DNA of 64,000 nucleotides from Nanobdellota archaeon (GTDB taxonomy: Archaea; Nanobdellota; Nanobdellia; Pacearchaeales; GW2011-AR1). The DNA lies in assembly GCA_038045945.1 (NCBI GenBank), contig JBBSXC010000003.1, positions 96,001 to 160,000 of the forward strand, given 5' to 3'. Position 1 is the first letter of the stretch. Each line of letters opens with the position of its first letter. The position numbers and the translations under genes were made by a program. Below, piece by piece: positions 1,361 through 64,000 of the stretch. The notes under the pieces were generated by a model. That model worked only from the letters and a program-made list of their open reading frames with translations. It did not search any database and was not told the origin of the DNA.

Positions 1361-1960
1361 ATGAAACCAACACTACACATAGTACACCCATACACTTACA
1401 AAGTTAAAGGAGACACTTTACTAGGAGGACCATTCCCAGAATTTAGAGAAAGAGACGAAAAAATATCACTATTAGTAAGAAGAGCAATAAAAAATGGTAC
1501 AGTAATGAGGCATTACAGTAACCCTATGGTTTCAGGGGAAGGATTTTCAGAATTAGGATGCTTACTATTTGACCCATTATTCAAGTGGAGCGTGAATAAA
1601 AAAATAATTGATTTGACAACAAGCTCAGGAGTACCAATTTCTGATGTCAGACCTGAAAAAATAAGTCCAGAAGACTGGGAAATATGTAAAAGACATTGGA
1701 CTACAAAAAAAGAACTTGCGAGGATAGTTAGTGATTCATCACCAAACGTTTTTATTGGAGGATACTTAGAAAACTGCGTTACTAACGCAGTAGGATACCA
1801 CCAAAAAACTTTTAGGAAAAAAGGAGAAGTAGCTTATTATGTTCCAGAATTATGTGCAAGAAGCCCAGATAGTTCGTGGGATGAAATAAAACCAAAACTA
1901 GAAGCTCTGGACGCTAAAGAAATAAGTTTTGAAAAAGCTTTAGGATTATTCGTACCTTAA
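1361..1960 (+). CDS. Hypothetical protein, possibly degenerate cysteine-hydrolase fold
   Basis: ORF; FIGGYLENCV resembles the isochorismatase GxxxxxCV segment; start moved to ATG 1361. Confidence 0.45.
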   Translation: MKPTLHIVHPYTYKVKGDTLLGGPFPEFRERDEKISLLVRRAIKNGTVMRHYSNPMVSGEGFSELGCLLFDPLFKWSVNKKIIDLTTSSGVPISDVRPEKISPEDWEICKRHWTTKKELARIVSDSSPNVFIGGYLENCVTNAVGYHQKTFRKKGEVAYYVPELCARSPDSSWDEIKPKLEALDAKEISFEKALGLFVP

Positions 1961-3160
1961 AGCCTTAACAGTTACAATCTTAGCCGCTCTCATAGCAGGG
2001 AAGGCTCCGCTTATTGCGCCTATTAAGAATGAGAATAATAAGCAAGAGACTATAAGCCACCAAGGAATAGCAGCAGCGAGCAGGTTAGTGCCTAAAAAGT
2101 TCACAGCAATAAATTCTAAAGATTTAGCTAAAAATATTCCTAAGACTACACCTATTGCTCCACCAACTAGGCCGATCATACCAGCCTCAATAATAAAGAT
2201 AGTAAGAATAGAAGAGTTTCTAGCACCTATTGCTTTCATAACACCAATCTCTCTAGTTCTTTCAACAACAGAAGTATACATGGTGTTAGCAATACCTACA
2301 GCACCAACAACTAAAGAAATACCAGCAATACCCAAAAGGAAACCAGTAACAATAGACAAAATACTACCAAAACTCTTAAGTATTTCTTCAGGAGTCATAA
2401 TATTAAAATCCTGATTTTTTTCAGTAACACCCCTATACTGCCTAAGCCTCTTCTCAACCTTCAAAGCAACATCTTTAACATCAGCACCAGGACTAACCTG
2501 AACAGTTACGTAATCAACACGATCATCACTAATATTAAACAAATCCCTAGCAACACTGTCAGGCATGTAAATGTTTTTGTCATCCGCCGGATTACCAATT
2601 CTAGCCATTATCCCACGAACCTTAAACCTTTTATCATTAATCTTAATTGAATCACCAACTTTTACAGGAACAGTGAAAGCTTTACTATAAGAATAATCAT
2701 AACCCAGACCAACATCTGCCTCATCACCAACCATTAAAGCCCTACCATCTTTAACCTTAAACCCGCCAGACTCAAAATAAAGATCAGCTGTTTCCAAATC
2801 AATACCAATAACTATGTTAAACCTTACTTCATTATTAAACTCTAATTTTGCGTTACCAACAACCATGTAAGTAACCTTCTTCACTCCAGGAACCTTACCT
2901 ATTTGCTCGACATCATCAAGAGTGAAGTGAGCACCAGTATCAGTCCCAGGAGGGCCATTATTACCACCAGCACTAACAAAAAACTTGTCAGTGCCCAATT
3001 GACGGAACTGTTCCGTAACAGCATTCTGCAAACCTAAAGACAAACTAATAAGAATAAAAATTGTTGCAATAGAAATAAAAATACCAATCATAGTAAGCCA
3101 TGAACGAACCTTCCTACGCTTAAGATTATTAGTAGCTAAAAAAAAGTAGTCTTCAATCAT
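1946..3160 (-). CDS. ABC transporter permease, MacB/FtsX family
   Basis: RSWLTMIGIFI N-term, large extracellular loop, GIANTMYTSVVERTREIGVMKAIGA, ALRYE end. Confidence 0.92.
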   Translation of the reverse strand: MIEDYFFLATNNLKRRKVRSWLTMIGIFISIATIFILISLSLGLQNAVTEQFRQLGTDKFFVSAGGNNGPPGTDTGAHFTLDDVEQIGKVPGVKKVTYMVVGNAKLEFNNEVRFNIVIGIDLETADLYFESGGFKVKDGRALMVGDEADVGLGYDYSYSKAFTVPVKVGDSIKINDKRFKVRGIMARIGNPADDKNIYMPDSVARDLFNISDDRVDYVTVQVSPGADVKDVALKVEKRLRQYRGVTEKNQDFNIMTPEEILKSFGSILSIVTGFLLGIAGISLVVGAVGIANTMYTSVVERTREIGVMKAIGARNSSILTIFIIEAGMIGLVGGAIGVVLGIFLAKSLEFIAVNFLGTNLLAAAIPWWLIVSCLLFSFLIGAISGAFPAMRAAKIVTVKALRYE

Positions 3161-4374
3161 GATCTTAAAGCCTCCACAGGACTCATCCTAGAAGCCTGTA
3201 TTGATGGAACTATACCAGCAAGTATACCAATAACAAAGGCGAAAAGAGCAGAAAAAATAAGCAAAGGAAAGGATATTTTAACACCAAGATTAAGTCCTGG
3301 CAAAAGAGCCCTAACAGCAGCTGAAGCAGTAATAGCGATTAATAAACCAACAATAGCACCGACAACACCTCCAACAAAACCCATAAGTCCTGATTCAATA
3401 ACAAAAATCTTTATTATATCAGAATTCTTAGCACCAATAGCTTTCATAACACCAATCTCCCGCTTACGCTCAAGAACAGAAGTATATAAAGTGTTAGAAA
3501 TACCAATACCACCAATAAGCAAAGAAATAGTAGCAATACCAACAATAACCAAGTTGATCATGTTAAGAATAGTATTAATAGAACTTAGTGCTTGTTCAGG
3601 AGTCTGAACAGAAAAATCTTCCTTACCCTCTTCCAGCCCCCTATCATCTCTCATAGCATTCCTAATATTATCAGAAACAACTTTGGTCTTATCTTTATCA
3701 CTAACCTGAACAGCAATCAAGTCATGCTCATCACCAAGACTTAATAGTTCCCTCATATCGCTCTCACTCATAAGAACAACAGAATTAACAGTAAAAGTAC
3801 TAGCTCTCTTTAATACACCAACAACATCAAACATTTTACCAGAAATATTAACAGATTTACCAACACTTATCTTTTTATCAAACTTATCATAAGCAATAAA
3901 GTCATTACCCAAAACCACTTTACCACGATCATTACCAGATATTAGCCTACCCTGCTCAACAATAATAGTAAAACTATCATAAATAAAATCTTCACCGCGC
4001 TTATCCTTAGGAATAGAAGCAAGATAAGAAAAAGTCCCAATCTCATTATACTCAAACTTTACAGTCCTAATAACCCTAGGAACAACCAAAGAAACATCAG
4101 AAACACTCCTAATAACCTGCACATCATGATCATTAAGCTTCTTAATAACAGTAGAACCCGGAGGACCAAAACCAGTCTCAGCATTCTGAACAACAAGCCT
4201 ATCAGGAGCAAGATCAGAAAACTGACCAGTAACAGCTAGTCGTAAACCATCACCTAAAGAAATAAGAGAAACAACAGCAGCAATACCAATCATAACACCA
4301 AGTATAGTAAGCCAAGAACGAAGACCCCTATGCTTAACAGACTTAAAAGCAAGAATAAAATAATCACCAATCAT
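3157..4374 (-). CDS. ABC transporter permease, MacB/FtsX family (paralog)
   Basis: RSWLTILGVMIGIAAVV, GISNTLYTSVLERKREIGVMKAIGA, PVEALR; 4-nt overlap with paralog. Confidence 0.92.
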   Translation of the reverse strand: MIGDYFILAFKSVKHRGLRSWLTILGVMIGIAAVVSLISLGDGLRLAVTGQFSDLAPDRLVVQNAETGFGPPGSTVIKKLNDHDVQVIRSVSDVSLVVPRVIRTVKFEYNEIGTFSYLASIPKDKRGEDFIYDSFTIIVEQGRLISGNDRGKVVLGNDFIAYDKFDKKISVGKSVNISGKMFDVVGVLKRASTFTVNSVVLMSESDMRELLSLGDEHDLIAVQVSDKDKTKVVSDNIRNAMRDDRGLEEGKEDFSVQTPEQALSSINTILNMINLVIVGIATISLLIGGIGISNTLYTSVLERKREIGVMKAIGAKNSDIIKIFVIESGLMGFVGGVVGAIVGLLIAITASAAVRALLPGLNLGVKISFPLLIFSALFAFVIGILAGIVPSIQASRMSPVEALRS

Positions 4375-57105: not shown

Positions 57106-57600
57106 ATGGAGAATATACAAGTATCCGTATCAAGACAAGACTTCGAAGGAGATAAAATACCAATATGGTACAAAGGAGACTTAATTGAAGGAGCAATAAG
57201 CATAACCCCAGAACAATCATACAGCAAAACAAACAATAAAGGAAAAAATTTTACTAAAGAAGGAAAAGCAACATACCAAATAAGAGGATTGTTAAAATAC
57301 AAAGCCAACAACTGTTTCGTTATAGACTTCGGAGTATTAGGAGTAAGCACAAGCCCCATACCAGAACAAATAAGCCCGCAAATAAGTGTAGGAGAACACA
57401 TAAACGGAAAGTTCAGATTATCAATAAGTTGTTTAATGGAAAAAATGGAAAGGTTAGGAAGAGAATCATCACAAAAACTAATACAAAAATTTAGAATAGA
57501 AAAAATATATTCTCCAACAGGAGCAGAAATAAACGAAATAAAGGGCGGAATGCAAGGCGCGAGCGGAATAATAATAGAATTAAACGCACTAAAGTTCTAG
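57106..57600 (+). CDS. Hypothetical protein
   Basis: ORF. Confidence 0.6.
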   Translation: MENIQVSVSRQDFEGDKIPIWYKGDLIEGAISITPEQSYSKTNNKGKNFTKEGKATYQIRGLLKYKANNCFVIDFGVLGVSTSPIPEQISPQISVGEHINGKFRLSISCLMEKMERLGRESSQKLIQKFRIEKIYSPTGAEINEIKGGMQGASGIIIELNALKF

Positions 57601-57629
57601 GTGTCTACACTTTCAAAAACGTAGACACC
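57600..57629. repeat. Inverted repeat GGTGTCTAC-N12-GTAGACACC
   Basis: Perfect 9-bp arms; same motif recurs upstream of the Fic gene. Confidence 0.8.
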
Positions 57630-57670
57630 CAACAAACATCGACGGATAAATTAATTCTCTGAGAAAAAAA

Positions 57671-57712
57671 TTATTTTTTGAATTTCTTCCTTAAAGTACG
57701 ATACTCTTTAAT
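57671..57712 (-). pseudogene. Relic second copy of Fic gene 3' end
   Basis: Encodes IKEYRTLRKKFKK* versus LKEYRTLRKKFKK* of Fic, with synonymous differences. Confidence 0.8.
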
Positions 57713-57727
57713 AAACATCTAAAAAGA

Positions 57728-58669
57728 CTACTTTTTAAATTTCTTTCTAAGGGTTCTATACTCTTTAAGAATTAATTCAATAGTAGGCCTAATATTACCA
57801 GTGTTTTGGAATTCTCGTAAAGTCTTATAATACTTTTTTCTACTATCAAAAGAAATATTCACAGGAGGAAGATGATGCTTAAGCAAAATATTATTAAGAA
57901 TAAGCCTACCAACCCTACCATTACCATCCTCAAAAGGGTGAATATACTCAAACTGGTTATGAACAACAGCAGCTAAAACAATACCAGGAAGCTTACGCTT
58001 ATTCTTATCATACCAAGTAACAAGCTCAGAAAGAAGAGAAGAAACCCTACTTGATGGAGCACCAAGGTGAATAATATTACCTAAACCATCACGAATACCA
58101 ACCTCAACACCCTTATTCCTAAACTTACCAGCAAAAGCCTTAGAGTTCTCAAAAACAGTTTTGTGCAAATCAAGCATCAACTTTAAAGATAAATGAACTT
58201 TCGTCTTACGAATATACCTAATAGCCTTAGCAACACCATAAGTTTCAGAAATTTCTCCCTTAGGCTTAGTAATAGGCCACTTATTACGACCTAAAATACC
58301 AACAACTTCACTCTGAGTAACAGTTGAACCCTCAATAGCGTTAGTATGATAAGCAAAAATTTCTGTGAAAGCATTCCATTCACTATCAGAAAGATGAAAA
58401 ATCTTAAACTTAGACTTATCCTTTAACAACTTAACAAGATCTAACTCTCGCTTAGTAAAACGATAATTAATAGGACTTCTAATAATTTTAAAACTATTAA
58501 GTTGTTGTATAAGCAAAGTTTTGGCTTTCTCAACACGACCATCAAGAATTTTCTTCTTAAGATTAACACCAATGTAAACTCTAGTCTTCTTAACCTTCCC
58601 ACCCTCACGAAAAGAGTGAGAAAGATAATACTTCAGCCCATGAACAGTTTTACGCTTTTCAAGATACAT
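57728..58669 (-). CDS. Fic-domain protein (class II, N-terminal inhibitory motif)
   Basis: HPFEDGNGRVGR catalytic motif; TNAIEG inhibitory motif. Confidence 0.93.
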   Translation of the reverse strand: MYLEKRKTVHGLKYYLSHSFREGGKVKKTRVYIGVNLKKKILDGRVEKAKTLLIQQLNSFKIIRSPINYRFTKRELDLVKLLKDKSKFKIFHLSDSEWNAFTEIFAYHTNAIEGSTVTQSEVVGILGRNKWPITKPKGEISETYGVAKAIRYIRKTKVHLSLKLMLDLHKTVFENSKAFAGKFRNKGVEVGIRDGLGNIIHLGAPSSRVSSLLSELVTWYDKNKRKLPGIVLAAVVHNQFEYIHPFEDGNGRVGRLILNNILLKHHLPPVNISFDSRKKYYKTLREFQNTGNIRPTIELILKEYRTLRKKFKK

Positions 58670-58719
58670 TAGTGCTTTAACCTCTTATTATAATACATTA
58701 CTACTTGCATATAAATATA

Positions 58720-58763
58720 TAGGTGTCTACATATTTAAATATGTCTACAAAAGGTGTCTACAC
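58720..58763. repeat. Three TGTCTACA direct repeats around an ATATTTAAATAT palindrome in the Fic promoter region
   Basis: TGTCTACA at 58724, 58742 and 58755. Confidence 0.8.
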
Positions 58764-58833
58764 AGGGCTACAAGTAAAAAGGTATGCTTTTAGTAAGCGA
58801 TTTGTTTAAATATTAAATTATTCTTGCTTTATT

Positions 58834-59262
58834 ATGGTAGAATCACTTGTCGAAATACTTAACTATCAATCACCTACTTACACTCAAACTTTTGATAGAG
58901 AGGTTGAAGCAGATGAAGGACACAGGTTTTTTTATAATAATGACCCTAAAGATAAAATTTGCGAATGGCTAAAAAATAATTCTTTATGCACCATCCCTCA
59001 AGCAGTACCAGGAGAAGTACCAACTCACACCGGATACTTAATTAATGGTCAAGATGGTTCTTCATGCATTGTTAGAATGAAATTTTACGATTTTTCTGAT
59101 AAGTCTAATGAAGAAAGAAAAGCAATGGTGCCAGAAGGAAGTAGAGACAGACCTTACAAAGTTAGACTGACTATTCGCTCACAACCAGCAAATAGAAGCA
59201 TGCCCAGAGAATTAAGGATTATTCTTAGCCAAATGAATTACGAAAAAATAAAAGAATTATAA
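58834..59262 (+). CDS. Hypothetical protein
   Basis: ORF with TATA. Confidence 0.6.
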   Translation: MVESLVEILNYQSPTYTQTFDREVEADEGHRFFYNNDPKDKICEWLKNNSLCTIPQAVPGEVPTHTGYLINGQDGSSCIVRMKFYDFSDKSNEERKAMVPEGSRDRPYKVRLTIRSQPANRSMPRELRIILSQMNYEKIKEL

Positions 59263-59326
59263 TAACAAACTTAGCAAAAGCCGCATAATAAGTATTAAAA
59301 GCATTATAATACAACAAAACATATAC

Positions 59327-59399
59327 GCCTTCGTAGCTCAATGGTTAGAGCGATTGCTTCGTAAGCAATAGGTTGAGGGTTCAATTCCCTTCGAAGGCT
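59327..59399 (+). tRNA. tRNA-Thr(CGT)
   Basis: GCCTTCG/CGAAGGC acceptor, ATTGC-TT CGT AA-GCAAT, GAGGG-TTCAATT-CCCTT. Confidence 0.95.
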
Positions 59400-59447
59400 T
59401 TGCCTAATAGTTAAGTTTAAATTAGTAAAAAATTTGGTGATATTTAC

Positions 59448-59519
59448 GCCTCAGTAGCTCAGTAGTAGAGCACGAGTTTAGTAAACTCGGGGTCGGGGGT
59501 TCAATTCCCTCCTGAGGCT
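59448..59519 (+). tRNA. tRNA-Thr(AGT)
   Basis: GCCTCAG/CTGAGGC acceptor, CGAGT-TT AGT AA-ACTCG (anticodon 59480-59482), GGGGG-TTCAATT-CCCTC. Confidence 0.9.
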
Positions 59520-59597
59520 TTAATATTATTTTATCTCATAAATACTTATAAACTAGATAATTTTCTCCAACAAGTAAAAAGGTGTTTGATAAAAAAA

Positions 59598-61055
59598 ATG
59601 GTTTATGATTGGCAATTAATAGGAGCAGAATGGGGAGATGAAGGAAAGGGTAGAGGAGTTCAAAACATAGTAAGAAACCAAAACATAAAGCACGTAGCAA
59701 AATACCAGGGCGGAGCTAATTCCGGGCATACGCAATACATAAAAGAGGATATAAAAATAGCTTTACACATGTTGCCCGATGGAGTAACAGAAACGGGAAC
59801 ATTCAACTATTTAACCCAAGGAGTCGCCCTAGACCTCGTACAAACTTTCAAAGAGATAGATGAACTCAAGGGTCACAAAATCTCACTTGATGGGAGATTA
59901 TTCATTAGCCATAGAGCAACAGTAGTAATGGCCGGAGACGTAGTTTCAGATTTCTTAAGCGATGGAAACGGAAGTACAGCAAAAGGAATAAGATATTGTT
60001 ACGGTAGACAATCAAGACCAAGACTGAACATAAGAGTGGAAGACTTATATGGAAAAGTAGGAAACGACGGAAAGCTATCAGAACCAAGAATTTCACAACA
60101 CCTCGAAAGATTTTTAAGAACATATGAAGGAGATCTTGCACAAAGATTAGAGTTAGAAATAGAAAGACTAAAAGAATTAAGATCCTCAAGTGACGAAAAG
60201 ACAAAGATTGAAAGAAGATTAGAAAGAGGTATTAAGTTAAGAGAAGAATTAAGATCTGAAAATGAAGCTACAAGACTTCTAAGACAAGCGGATAGACTTC
60301 TACCATATGTTGCAGACACGACAAAAATGTTAGAAGACGTAGTTAATGGAGATAGAGAAGGAATATTATACGATGGTTCACAAGCAGCACTACTTGATAA
60401 AGATTCAGGCCCAGGAGATGATTTAACATCTTCATCATCAAGTGGAGCAGCATTATTTGCTAATCTAGGATTTTCTTATAATAACAGACAAATGGGCAGA
60501 CTAATTAGAATAGGAGTAGTAAAACACTTACCTACAAGAGTCGGAAGAGCAGGGCACGGTTTCCCAACAAGAGATGAAAAATTAGAAACCGCATTAAGAG
60601 AAAAAGGCGATGAAAGAGGAGCAACAACAGGAAGACCCAGAGAAATGGGACACCCAGATGCCGTAGCAGTTGCTTACGCAGTTAGAATTAGTGGAATTGA
60701 CGGGTTATTCTACACAAAAGCAGACTTAGTAGATGGACAGGGAGAGCAAAAAATAGCCATAGCCTACAAGGACGATGATACAGGAGTAGTTTATCCTAGA
60801 ATGATCACTCATAGAGAAATATTCGACAGTACCAGACTAAAACCAATTTTTGAAACTCATTCTGGATGGGATAAACTTCAAGGCGCTAGAAAAGAAGAAG
60901 ACACACCAGAAAGCTTCAAAAGATTCTTAGGAAGATATACAGATATAATATCAGAAAAAGTCAATAGATACGTCCCAATAGTCGCAATATCCACAAGCCC
61001 AAAAAGCGAAGACTTTATTGATTTATTAGATAGACTACAATTGCAAGAGAGATAA
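59598..61055 (+). CDS. purA: Adenylosuccinate synthetase, divergent long form
   Basis: GAEWGDEGKG, QGGANSGHT, TRVG, GATTGRPR, TKAD. Confidence 0.88.
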   Translation: MVYDWQLIGAEWGDEGKGRGVQNIVRNQNIKHVAKYQGGANSGHTQYIKEDIKIALHMLPDGVTETGTFNYLTQGVALDLVQTFKEIDELKGHKISLDGRLFISHRATVVMAGDVVSDFLSDGNGSTAKGIRYCYGRQSRPRLNIRVEDLYGKVGNDGKLSEPRISQHLERFLRTYEGDLAQRLELEIERLKELRSSSDEKTKIERRLERGIKLREELRSENEATRLLRQADRLLPYVADTTKMLEDVVNGDREGILYDGSQAALLDKDSGPGDDLTSSSSSGAALFANLGFSYNNRQMGRLIRIGVVKHLPTRVGRAGHGFPTRDEKLETALREKGDERGATTGRPREMGHPDAVAVAYAVRISGIDGLFYTKADLVDGQGEQKIAIAYKDDDTGVVYPRMITHREIFDSTRLKPIFETHSGWDKLQGARKEEDTPESFKRFLGRYTDIISEKVNRYVPIVAISTSPKSEDFIDLLDRLQLQER

Positions 61056-61097
61056 GTTTACCATAAAACTTATAAGTTTCAGTTTAACCTTAATCGT

Positions 61098-61877
61098 ATG
61101 CTTGACTTATCTCCCCATTCTTTTAGAGGAATGAGACCCGATTCTAGGAGCATTATTCCAGACACTACTCTTTGCATGATTGTTCGTGATGAATTAATGA
61201 ATTCTGCTGGAGGAATAGAAAGAATGCTTAGGCATCACATCCCGCACTTCACACAAGTAGACGTTGCTGATACAGGATCAGTTGATGGAACCAGAGAAAA
61301 ACTCGCAGAACTAGAAAAAGAATACGAGCAACTAAGAGTTTATGACCACGCTTTCGATGGTTACGGACCTAGCAGAAACTTCATAAAAAGCAAAGCAAGA
61401 ACAAGACTTGTAGCAATGCTAGATGCAGACGAACTAATAACTCACCAAGACCTATCAAGAATAAGAAGAATAATAAACAATAGAGAAGGACTTGTAGGAA
61501 TACATTTTCCCTTTAGACAAGTAAAAAAAACTATTGGTGAACCAAACTACGAGTTTGGCCACAACCCAAGAATTTATAGAAATTTACCAGACTACAATTA
61601 TAGAGGAAAAGTTTGGGAAAACCTGTTCGACGAAGATGAAGAAGAACAAGTAAGATACACAGTAGGTGATGGAATAGAGAGAGAAAACCTACCAATGGTT
61701 AAAGTACCAATTTACCACTTCGAACCACAAGATGAAGAAGTTTATTTGGATAAAAGAAAAGAATTATACACTGATTTGCAACTAAAAGGAAGGTTTGATG
61801 TACCACCATCAAGAGTTAAAGGCTTCAAATTATGGAAAGCTTTTAATCCCTTGCGAAACGCACCACAGTTTAACTAA
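61098..61877 (+). CDS. Glycosyltransferase family 2
   Basis: LCMIVRDE, DTGSVDGT, RN, LDADE. Confidence 0.85.
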   Translation: MLDLSPHSFRGMRPDSRSIIPDTTLCMIVRDELMNSAGGIERMLRHHIPHFTQVDVADTGSVDGTREKLAELEKEYEQLRVYDHAFDGYGPSRNFIKSKARTRLVAMLDADELITHQDLSRIRRIINNREGLVGIHFPFRQVKKTIGEPNYEFGHNPRIYRNLPDYNYRGKVWENLFDEDEEEQVRYTVGDGIERENLPMVKVPIYHFEPQDEEVYLDKRKELYTDLQLKGRFDVPPSRVKGFKLWKAFNPLRNAPQFN

Positions 61878-61893
61878 AAAATCCTTTTGAAGC

Positions 61894-62208
61894 TTATTTC
61901 TTATTAACTAAGTATTCTTGCATTTGCAAAGCTAAATCAAGACCTAATTTTTTAAGTAATGGGATAGTGAACCTAAAAGTAACAACGCCTACCCCGAAAT
62001 CATCATTATTTAAGTCGAGAAAAATATTTTCGTTAGTGGTATAAGCTAAACTATTAAGATTTTTATCAGTTATAACAAATCTTTGCCCTAATGAATCATC
62101 ACCAACTTTTTTTGATGAAGCATATATCCTAAAAAAGTCTGATAATGACTTATCATCTTTAACTTTAGCAAAAAACTTTTCTTTAATACTACTAATGGAC
62201 TCTACCAT
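61894..62208 (-). CDS. Hypothetical protein
   Basis: ORF. Confidence 0.55.
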   Translation of the reverse strand: MVESISSIKEKFFAKVKDDKSLSDFFRIYASSKKVGDDSLGQRFVITDKNLNSLAYTTNENIFLDLNNDDFGVGVVTFRFTIPLLKKLGLDLALQMQEYLVNKK

Positions 62209-62259
62209 GGAAAAATAAAGATTAATTAAGCCTTTTTAAACTCTTTTAATAAAGAAAAA

Positions 62260-62343
62260 TGCGGGGGGAAGGAATCGAACCTTCGCAGGCACTAAGCCAT
62301 TGGATCTTAAGTCCAACCCGTTTGACCGCTCCGGCACTCCCGC
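62260..62343 (-). tRNA. tRNA-Leu(TAA)
   Basis: GCGGGAG...TTGGA-CT TAA GA-TCCAA, long variable arm, GAAGG-TTCGATT-CCTTC, CCCCCGCA. Confidence 0.95.
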
Positions 62344-62365
62344 ATATAATTAAAACATTAAAACA

Positions 62366-63397
62366 TCACTTATAAGGTTTTCTAGAACCAAACTTTTTCT
62401 TAACTACAGCCTTAATAAAGTTCACAGTTTTGTTAACAACTCTCTTGTCATGCATAGCGTAAAGGATGCTAGAAGGGAAAAAGTTTGTTGAAGAAAGATT
62501 GTGGGGCGCCCTAGAAAAAAATTCTAGTTTGTGATTACCAAAAACTTCTATTTCTCTCTCATAATCTTTTTCTTTATCAATACTTCCACGCAAATCCTTA
62601 ACAGAAAAATTATGGTGGTCTTTACCACCAAGGATGAATAGTTTAGGGATACTCCTAAAATCATTAATAGTTTTTGAAGCCTTCTCATCGCCAAGACTGC
62701 TCAAAACTTGTAAGTAATCAATGTAATACCTAGGGTCTTTAGCAACAGAAAAGTATGATTCTAACTCCTTCATATCCCTTAAGAAGAAGTGTGCAAGCTG
62801 GATAGGATAATTCTTCTTAACATAATTAGTTCGGTTAATAGTTCTTGAAAGGTTTATTCTGTGAAAAATAAATTGTGCAATAGGCACAGGCTTTATCAAA
62901 CCATCAAATTTTATAGCTTTAATTAATTCATAAACAGAACCTTTAATGTCCCTGGCAAAACCACCAAGAATTAAAGCATCAAAAACAGGTTTATGATAAA
63001 CTGATAAGGACTTTTTTTTGGAAAAATAGTCTCTTTCTGCTTTAACATCATAATTAGCAGCAGCAAATATCCCAGAATTAGCACCAAAAGAGTACCCCCC
63101 ACCAAAAACTATTTTTGCTCCAAGATTCTTACGCAAATGATTAGCAGCCTTTATTTGTTCTTGCGCAGCCCTGCCAAAAGTGAATTCTTCATCCCACTCT
63201 TGGTGTGATGGAAGATCTAAAGAAATAACGTTAGCATTAACCCTTTTCATTATAGCAACAATATACTTTTCTAAACATGACCAGTTAGGAGTGAAACCTG
63301 CTTGCAAAACAATACCGACCTTTTCATTATTCCCACGAGTAAATAATACGCCATGAATTCCTTTATTAGCTAATGATTTATAAATTATTTTAGTCAT
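62366..63397 (-). CDS. Alpha/beta-hydrolase fold protein
   Basis: DLPSH, GYSFG nucleophile elbow, GGKD, APH. Confidence 0.7.
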   Translation of the reverse strand: MTKIIYKSLANKGIHGVLFTRGNNEKVGIVLQAGFTPNWSCLEKYIVAIMKRVNANVISLDLPSHQEWDEEFTFGRAAQEQIKAANHLRKNLGAKIVFGGGYSFGANSGIFAAANYDVKAERDYFSKKKSLSVYHKPVFDALILGGFARDIKGSVYELIKAIKFDGLIKPVPIAQFIFHRINLSRTINRTNYVKKNYPIQLAHFFLRDMKELESYFSVAKDPRYYIDYLQVLSSLGDEKASKTINDFRSIPKLFILGGKDHHNFSVKDLRGSIDKEKDYEREIEVFGNHKLEFFSRAPHNLSSTNFFPSSILYAMHDKRVVNKTVNFIKAVVKKKFGSRKPYK

Positions 63398-63435
63398 AAA
63401 AACCCTTTTTTACCTAAACAATTATTAAAAATTTC

Positions 63436-64000
63436 TTATGGTAATTCACCACTACCAAGCTGTGGAGTGTTCAAAGATGAAGCATCTGCTTTGTAGTAAT
63501 CTTTACTAGAGAAACCAAACATTCCAGCAATTATGTTTGATGGGAATCTCTTAATAGCAGTGTTGTATTCTTGAACTGTTTGAATGTATCTTCCTCTAGC
63601 AACAGTTATTCTGTTCGCAGTACCAGCAAGTTCATCAGTTAAAGAAGTGTATTGTTTGTTAGCTTGAAAAGTAGGATATTGTTCAGCAACAGCGTTAACG
63701 AAAGCAGCAACACCATTACTCATTGCTACACCAGCAGAATCCTTCTGGGCAACAGTTACAGCATCTCTCCAAGCATTCCTAGCAGCAATGACATCCTTAA
63801 CAAAAGCTGTTTCAGCCTTAACAGAACTTGAAGTTACTGAAACAAGATTTGGTATTAGGTCAGCTTGCCTTTGATACTGACTTTCAACTTCACTCCACTT
63901 AGCATTAACATCTTGATCTAGCTTAACAAAGCGATTATAACCGCTAACAAAGTATAATAACAAAATTATAACTAATAATGCTGCAACGATTAAAGAAATC
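63436..64000 (-). CDS. lemA: LemA family protein (5' end outside window)
   Basis: YN..V, W..VE.QYQRQADLIPNLV, E.YP, NRI.VAR, FPSNIIA; frame open to window edge. Confidence 0.9.
   Translation of the reverse strand, partial: ISLIVAALLVIILLLYFVSGYNRFVKLDQDVNAKWSEVESQYQRQADLIPNLVSVTSSSVKAETAFVKDVIAARNAWRDAVTVAQKDSAGVAMSNGVAAFVNAVAEQYPTFQANKQYTSLTDELAGTANRITVARGRYIQTVQEYNTAIKRFPSNIIAGMFGFSSKDYYKADASSLNTPQLGSGELP

Follow-up and report, generated by a model that had tools for sequence, protein, structure and literature searches.

The stretch of DNA analysed here (hereafter the window) comprises 64,000 nucleotides (nt) of contig JBBSXC010000003.1 (C3) from assembly GCA_038045945.1 of a Nanobdellota archaeon (genome G000). 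Positions 59448 to 59519 on the positive strand encode a 72-nt transfer RNA (tRNA) for threonine, tRNA-Thr(AGT), whose anticodon at 59480 to 59482 places an adenosine at wobble position 34 (A34, position 59480); both the gene and its anticodon were identified by ARAGORN, by the Rfam model RF00005 and from the sequence. The G000 genome amounts to 847,022 bp in 7 contigs with a G+C content of 34-37% and is 93% complete. ARAGORN with an intron search called 41 tRNA genes in it, and Infernal (RF00005) returned 40 matches. Some of these genes contain introns, Arg-GCG stands in place of Arg-ACG, and the nearest relatives of the G000 proteins carry the names Woesearchaeota, Nanoarchaeota and Pacearchaeota; the host of the window is therefore a DPANN archaeon, in agreement with the archaeal host named in a preliminary description of the locus. 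Three reviews state that ANN tRNA genes and an A34 deaminase are absent from Archaea (PMC8007984, PMC11066159, PMC8879553).

The tRNA-Thr(AGT) gene encodes no CCA and ends in the discriminator U73 (T at 59519). It matches RF00005 over its full length (model positions 1-71) with a score of 67.4 bits (gathering score 29, E 1.7e-12), ranking seventh among the 40 matches of the genome, and no non-canonical pairs are flagged. Its cloverleaf has the features of an RF00005 elongator tRNA, with a 7-bp acceptor stem (GCCTCAG/CTGAGGC), a 4-bp D stem, 5-bp anticodon and T stems, a 7-nt anticodon loop (TT-AGT-AA) containing U33, and the T-loop TTCRA. The identity elements of tRNA-Thr are G1-C72, C2-G71, C3-G70, U73 and G35-U36; the terminal GCC.../...GGC, T73 and the anticodon xGT are common to this gene and all listed Thr tRNAs of its relatives, and the product would presumably be aminoacylated with threonine. 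The D-loop reads AGTAGTA, not AGTGGTA, placing A at canonical position 18 (59464, positive strand) and retaining G19. G18 forms a near-universal tertiary contact to the T-loop. By a crude string test and by eye, tRNA-Thr(AGT) is alone among the 41 G000 tRNA genes in having no GG in the D-loop, and every listed Thr tRNA of the relatives retains it. This loss of G18 is the sole pseudogene-like feature of the gene, in which broken stems, a lost promoter and redundancy with a gene of the same anticodon class were not found.

The gene follows tRNA-Thr(CGT) in tandem (59327 to 59399, positive strand; called by ARAGORN and scored at 74.2 bits with Rfam), and the 48-nt spacer between them contains a TTTAAA box at 59416 to 59421 on the positive strand, 27-32 nt before the tRNA begins (-32 to -27), presumed to be an archaeal TATA-type promoter element. 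A box of this kind recurs at about -35 to -25 of G000 tRNA genes: TTTAAA, TTTATA or TTTTAA is found between -40 and -21 in 31 of the 41 genes, compared with 2.2% of 20,000 random 20-nt windows. The box probably serves the organism as the TATA element in transcribing its tRNA genes. Directly 3′ of tRNA-Thr(AGT), the T-rich tail ttaatattattttatc (59520 to 59535, positive strand) may act as a transcription stop, to judge from sequence alone, and the box together with the intact structure makes expression of the gene plausible. The intact gene, its tandem arrangement with tRNA-Thr(CGT) and the A at position 18 all belonged to the preliminary description and are borne out by the sequence, ARAGORN and RF00005.

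G000 is a single metagenome-assembled genome, and a sequencing or assembly artefact, with G or T as the true base at 59480, was therefore considered. Two sequencing runs from two samples, X1 and X2, yielded Logan contigs (word depths of 19.6 and 12, respectively) that carry A at this position, the base singled out for checking in the preliminary description, and contain no differing letter over 59000 to 59900. A one-off assembly slip is thereby ruled out for this interval, with the reservation that the assembly itself may stem from these two samples, which are thus not fully independent. As described below, the gene body is also not of the GGT type, so that G34 would be equally odd, and the GGT site of the genome is itself empty. 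Taken with the identical contigs, these results make an artefact very improbable.

The Thr tRNA genes of G000 carry the anticodons CGT, AGT and TGT, the last with a 31-nt intron (C4:241869-241971, minus strand). No Thr-GGT was found in the seven contigs of this 93%-complete genome by ARAGORN with introns or by Infernal. The Leu tRNAs read TAA, CAA, TAG and AAG, the latter encoded at C4:175505-175588 (locus L033, 1501-1584), and neither Leu-GAG nor Leu-CAG was found in the inventory. Leu-AAG and Thr-AGT are the only ANN tRNAs of the genome, and a G34 tRNA is retained for Ile (GAT) and for all four-codon boxes other than Thr and Leu (Ser GGA, Pro GGG, Ala GGC, Val GAC, Gly GCC and Arg GCG). The two questions that the preliminary description had put to the inventory, whether Thr-GGT is absent and whether other ANN tRNAs exist, are thus both answered in the affirmative. 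The inventory also lacks Ala-TGC, Arg-CCG, Pro-CGG and Val-CAC, indicating that the tRNA set of G000 is incomplete.

The site at which Thr-GGT would be expected was located through its conserved neighbours. In relatives the gene adjoins a conserved small gene, the homologue of G000 C1:71250-71768, which is present in 55 of 61 genomes (60 relatives used for BLAST-type comparisons, and G000). Among 29 such loci fetched from relatives, 23 contain Thr-GGT, 20 of these being called by ARAGORN and three intron-bearing examples (L108, L110 and L125) being recognised by eye; of the six loci where it is absent, three are shortened by a contig end. The same-genus relative G001, which is 79% complete, carries Thr-GGT between both flanking genes (locus L107), followed by an insertion of roughly 1 kb. 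The G000 counterpart, on an intact contig of 139,679 bp, is a 79-bp spacer that contains no tRNA and lies between the end of the upstream gene at C1:71170 and the start of the downstream gene at 71250. This tRNA-free spacer, set against the presence of Thr-GGT in 23 of 29 loci, indicates that the gene was deleted from its ancestral site in G000 and is not merely unassembled. As a separate observation, G000 has no equivalent of the G001 insertion (L107, about 420-1400) that separates tRNA-Thr(GGT) from the conserved gene downstream of it. The resulting Thr set conforms to two known patterns, that of inosine-34 (I34) tRNAs, in which A34 is encoded and the G34 isoacceptor is absent, and that of unmodified A34, in which an A34 gene takes the place of the G34 gene and a U34 partner serves the same box (AGT, TGT and CGT in G000).

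The body of the tRNA-Thr(AGT) gene points to an origin other than Thr-GGT. When it was compared with the 60 relatives by BLAST, the best 29 loci comprised 13 Thr-TGT, seven Thr-CGT and six Thr-GGT genes and three genes for Lys or Met. The nearest match is the Thr-TGT gene of G001 (88% identity), with an identical anticodon stem (CGAGT/ACTCG) and T-loop (TTCAATT), and the G001 Thr-GGT gene differs from it in the anticodon stem and T-arm. Against the spliced Thr-TGT of G000 itself there are three compensated pair changes (6:67, 7:66 and 28:42), together with A18 and with differences at positions 20 and 34 and at a single base of the T-loop. Because the body matches TGT and not GGT, the gene is a TGT-type gene in which T34 changed to A. 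A G-to-A mutant of the GGT gene is ruled out by the TGT-type body together with the empty GGT site. The Thr-TGT locus of G001 is syntenic with the intron-bearing TGT locus of G000 and not with the window, which excludes positional orthology between the AGT gene and G001 Thr-TGT and implies that G000 has two TGT-type genes, one of which lies beside Thr-CGT and carries A34. The 31-nt intron of the G000 Thr-TGT gene is missing from the syntenic G001 locus (L004, 1500-1573), and so appears to have been gained or lost within a genus.

A search across 301 genomes of the order indicates how rare such a gene is. The class-I A34 pattern used (YTANNRA, 14 nt, GTTCRANNCC) demands Y32, T33, R37, A38, a 5-nt variable loop and GTTCRANNCC and would therefore pass over atypical A34 tRNAs; it matched in 72 of the 301 genomes, with a backwards control pattern matching at a similar order of frequency. 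Matches reading AGT occurred in G000, G003, G135 and G229. The G003 match was interpreted as the junction between intron and exon in an Ile(GAT) gene, and those of G135 and G229, which are nearly the same string, were assumed from that likeness to be the same junction. Of a further six tRNA-like matches that were fetched, ARAGORN identified five as tRNAs that contain introns and bear different anticodons, and it returned no call for the sixth (L153). As far as this pattern reaches, no class-I A34 tRNA other than that of G000 was confirmed among the 301 genomes. The orthologs that the preliminary description had looked to in relatives did not materialise, with no AGT counterpart in the 29 best loci and none confirmed among the 301 genomes of the order.

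An exact-pattern scan of genome contigs gave no matches, although the window's own records may be excluded from that collection, and the same scan of metagenome contigs gave 27 contigs with Thr(AGT), all with bodies unlike that of the G000 gene. Many of these genes (L154-L180, e.g. L163, L170 and L161) lie in dense tRNA arrays with encoded CCA, which have a phage-like look, or next to ANN tRNAs of eukaryotic type; the gene on contig L161 is accompanied by Pro(AGG), Ser(AGA) and Ile(AAT), which look eukaryote- or giant-virus-like. The metagenome contigs are unrelated to the G000 lineage and have no bearing on it.

The second ANN tRNA of G000 has a very different distribution. BLAST of tRNA-Leu(AAG) against the 60 relatives placed an AAG gene at the centre of 21 of 29 loci (20 by ARAGORN and one intron-bearing gene by eye), with TAG at five, GAG at two and CAA at one. 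These Leu(AAG) loci belong to the window's family and to other families of the order, and show compensatory changes in the anticodon stem among relatives. A class-wide scan with a D-arm-plus-anticodon pattern covered 401 genomes of one class, each at least 90% complete, including 27 near-complete genomes of the window's family (f1). The Leu(AAG) pattern was found in 84 of the 401 genomes, with some noise, and in 24 of the 27 in f1; the corresponding counts for Leu(GAG) are 198 and two, and both f1 genomes with Leu(GAG) are among the three that lack AAG. Leu(AAG) was also found in 5 of 5 sampled f25 genomes and in 7 of 12 f31 genomes. Five unpublished genomes (G558, G559, G629, G659 and G690) contribute to the class-wide tallies; they fall outside the f1 counts and no claim is built on them. 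Leu(AAG) thus alternates with Leu(GAG), and in much of this archaeal class the G34 tRNA of the CUN box has given way to one with A34.

This replacement does not follow the presence of a deaminase domain. PF00383 was found in 302 of the 401 genomes and in 14 of the 27 in f1, and among the 24 f1 genomes that carry Leu(AAG), 11 gave no match to this domain at E<=0.01 (G061, G063, G073, G077, G082, G090, G092, G034, G095, G097 and G104), these being 91-98% complete. The 79%-complete G001 likewise carries Leu(AAG) (L035) and has no match to PF00383 or to the G000 deaminase described below. The presence of AAG in 24 of 27 f1 genomes, 11 of them without PF00383, indicates that Leu(AAG) is independent of a recognisable TadA-type enzyme, so that A34 in this tRNA would either be unmodified or be acted on by an enzyme of an unrecognised type. 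Leu(AAG) is accordingly a larger departure from the statement that Archaea have no ANN anticodons than Thr(AGT) is, and since it already serves the CUN box in genomes without a recognisable A34 deaminase, A34 is evidently tolerated by the group.

The preliminary description took archaea to lack TadA-type editing and suggested a search for deaminases of the cytidine deaminase (CDA) fold. That view is not a safe premise for G000, which encodes a single TadA/guanine-deaminase-like protein scoring below the TadA cut-off and nearer to guanine deaminase than to TadA. The protein (155 amino acids (aa), C4:114542-115006, minus strand; profile and motif search) carries HAE...PCPMC zinc motifs and is the only CDA-fold protein of the genome, with no other HxE...PCxxC protein present. 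No match to PF02137, the ADAR/ADAT1-type domain, was found in G000, and a deaminase of that type was therefore discounted. Aligned over residues 8-150, the protein scores 83.3 bits against the NCBIfam TadA equivalog, whose cut-off is 150, and this is its only NCBIfam match with E below 1e-10. Among solved structures it scores 108 bits against Bacillus subtilis guanine deaminase, 88 against Aquifex TadA, 77 against Staphylococcus aureus TadA and 59 against Escherichia coli TadA, and its close homologues are named variously 'tRNA(adenine34) deaminase', 'nucleoside deaminase' and 'guanine deaminase'. A match in fold would not tell TadA and guanine deaminase apart. Homologues occur in 11 of the 60 relatives, G001 not among them, and any PF00383 domain occurs in 42 of the 61 genomes including G000. 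The score profile and distribution of the protein are suggestive of a role in nucleobase salvage. The deaminase gene (L001 1339-1806, minus strand) overlaps by 20 nt the 3′ end of an open reading frame (ORF) on the same strand (1787-3277; C4 around 114.5-116.5 kb) that reads as uvrC-like in translation, and the two may be co-transcribed.

If this deaminase acted on tRNA-Thr(AGT), the tRNA would work with A34 converted to inosine, and the resulting IGU anticodon would read ACU, ACC and ACA, as it does in eukaryotes. The zinc motifs of the protein, its sole strong NCBIfam match being the TadA equivalog and the naming of some homologues as 'tRNA(adenine34) deaminase' are in keeping with such editing, and it is mildly suggestive that a gene found in only 11 of 60 relatives should be present in the genome with Thr-AGT. 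The missing G34 isoacceptor also fits, this being the rule wherever I34 is used according to PMC8879553. However, the protein falls far under the TadA cut-off (83 vs 150) and its best solved relative is guanine deaminase (108 bits vs 88 and 59 for the Aquifex and E. coli TadA). Relatives with clear homologues (G057, G036, G017 and G021) carry an ordinary Thr-GGT, so that the usual job of the family is not tied to extra A34 tRNAs. Leu(AAG), moreover, is kept in the 11 near-complete f1 genomes without PF00383 and in the less complete G001 without the deaminase. An accessory adenylosuccinate synthetase gene (purA) beside the tRNA, present in only four of 60 relatives, would also fit a purine-salvage role of the deaminase. 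On balance, editing of this tRNA to I34 by the G000 deaminase is considered unlikely.

Codon usage was counted in 764 long ORFs, amounting to 82% of the G000 genome. The Thr codons total 4606 ACU, 652 ACC, 6312 ACA and 674 ACG, so that ACU is seven times commoner than ACC, and the more frequent of these two pyrimidine-ending codons is the one with which A34 forms a Watson-Crick pair. The preliminary description had seen a fit between ACT-rich genes and A34; the genes are indeed rich in ACU, but the feature is not specific, with the same U/A preference in all four-codon boxes. The ratio C/(U+C) in the Thr box (0.124) and the Leu-CUN box (0.128) compares with 0.098-0.126 for the G34-served Val, Ala, Pro and Ser-UCN boxes, and codon usage was rejected as a discriminator between models because four-codon boxes look alike under G34 or A34. 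As a side observation, this ratio lies between 0.10 and 0.23 in all four-codon boxes of G000, mostly at about 0.12, and between 0.38 and 0.50 in two-codon boxes, a split suggesting that NNY codons are decoded or selected differently in the two kinds of box.

Downstream of tRNA-Thr(AGT), on the positive strand, lie the purA gene (59586 to 61055, 489 aa) and a gene for a family-2 glycosyltransferase (61098 to 61877). The Pfam match of the purA product spans residues 11-477 against a model of 416 positions, indicating that the protein carries extra inserted sequence. Homologues in the four relatives share 29-37% identity, and none was found in G001. This restricted distribution marks the neighbourhood of the tRNA as accessory, and purA itself is likely to be an acquired accessory gene. 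No att-like direct repeat of the tRNA 3′ end occurs within 57500-63500, which rules out an integrated element bounded by such repeats. Upstream of the tRNA pair, a Fic-domain gene (57728 to 58669, minus strand) is bracketed by an inverted repeat (57602-57629 and 58722-58749) of 28 nt that is 75% complementary, has the core GGTGTCTACA and is also seen as a 38-nt direct-repeat pair. The Fic gene and its flanking repeat may form a small mobile or regulatory cassette.

The accessory setting is one of several features that would be expected if tRNA-Thr(AGT) were a redundant copy of tRNA-Thr(UGU) drifting towards a pseudogene, with ACU and ACC read by four-way wobble of the UGU tRNA after the loss of GGU. 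The copy has changed at two positions that are normally invariant or avoided (A18 and A34), a second and syntenically conserved Thr-TGT is available at C4:241869-241971, and no relative has an AGT gene. ACC is also not rarer than other NNC codons of four-codon boxes, so that no special decoder for it is demanded. However, no pairing is broken in any of the four stems, and the three base pairs that differ from those of the paralogue are compensated. Few tRNAs of the genome score higher with Infernal, and an unbroken TTTAAA box of the tRNA type stands at the proper distance. Decay would also leave unexplained the coincidence of a rare Thr-GGT loss with a unique gain of a Thr tRNA with a purine at position 34. 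Drift of a dispensable copy is thus judged an improbable account of the gene.

The evidence described above slightly favours a working tRNA-Thr(AGT) that has replaced the lost tRNA-Thr(GGU) and whose A34 is unmodified. That the gene works at all is the firmer part of this proposal and is regarded as highly probable, and given that it works, an unmodified A34 is thought likely. Function and replacement of GGU are proposed because the unique AGT gain and the rare GGT loss coincide in one genome, because structure and promoter box have been kept, and because the group tolerates A34. In the proposed sequence of events, a second copy of the UGU-type tRNA-Thr in this species-level lineage would have undergone a U34 to A change, and the AGU tRNA would now fill the slot of the tRNA-Thr(GGU) deleted from its conserved site. 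It would read ACU through a Watson-Crick A:U pair, ACC would fall to a weaker A:C interaction and/or to tRNA-Thr(UGU), and ACA and ACG to the UGU and CGU tRNAs. A34 would most likely be unmodified, as in the tRNA-Thr(AGU) of Mycoplasma capricolum.

Several results weigh against this proposal. The gene has lost G18, and A18 together with A34 are two unusual changes in one redundant copy, which may give it the look of early decay. None of the 29 best-matching loci of the 60 relatives is AGT, and the status of the gene as the only confirmed example among the 301 genomes removes any argument for function from conservation. The C/(U+C) ratios of the Thr and Leu-CUN boxes carry no codon signal when set beside those of the G34-served boxes. 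A relocated Thr-GGT may lie in the missing part of the 93%-complete genome. Finally, the presence of a deaminase in G000, unlike in 49 of the 60 relatives, makes an unmodified A34 less safe for Thr(AGT) than for Leu(AAG).

The closest known counterpart is the tRNA-Thr(AGU) of M. capricolum, with an unmodified A34, which according to PMC3711424 translates all four ACN codons, ACA poorly, alongside a UGU partner; the parallel was drawn in the preliminary description and is apt on this account. The two systems share the amino acid and anticodon, an AT-rich reduced genome, the lack of a G34 isoacceptor and a UGU partner. They differ in that M. capricolum is bacterial, whereas G000 is archaeal and has a CGU isoacceptor, a UGU-type origin of the tRNA, A18 and an A34 that is only presumed to be unmodified. 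In the Leuconostocaceae, as described in PMC8007984, Leu-AAG and Thr-AGT stand in place of GNN tRNAs, so that the same two boxes, Leu CUN and Thr ACN, have switched from G34 to A34 as in G000; TadA is kept there for tRNA-Arg(ACG), whereas G000 uses Arg-GCG. The corresponding tRNA-Leu is reported as IAG in Lactobacillales in PMC13249217, but many relatives of G000 with Leu-AAG have no CDA-fold deaminase. Compared with I34 tRNAs made by TadA or ADAT2-ADAT3, G000 is alike in having A34 in a four-codon box, no G34 isoacceptor and a TadA-like gene, and differs in that its deaminase is under the cut-off, nearer to guanine deaminase and distributed without regard to A34 tRNAs. No description of A34 tRNAs in DPANN archaea was found in the full-text literature, a body of text that leaves most subscription journals outside its coverage.

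The statement that Archaea have no ANN anticodons is an anchor in models of genetic-code and wobble evolution. The route suggested here for anticodon turnover, in which a U34 gene is duplicated, position 34 changes and the G34 gene is lost, would differ from a simple G-to-A flip. A broader reading, for which the arguments appear evenly balanced, is that DPANN archaea of the Nanoarchaeia type decode four-codon boxes with unmodified A34 tRNAs or possess an A34 deaminase that is not of the CDA fold. As part of that same reading, G000 would catch the A34 takeover seen in the Leu box as it starts in a second box, with a UGU-type Thr copy becoming AGU, followed by loss of GGU. If A34 is edited in these organisms, an archaeal editing enzyme awaits discovery; if it is unmodified, they would provide a natural archaeal system for A34 decoding, of which very few exist. 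Were the broader reading true, the rule that Archaea never use ANN anticodons would be overturned.

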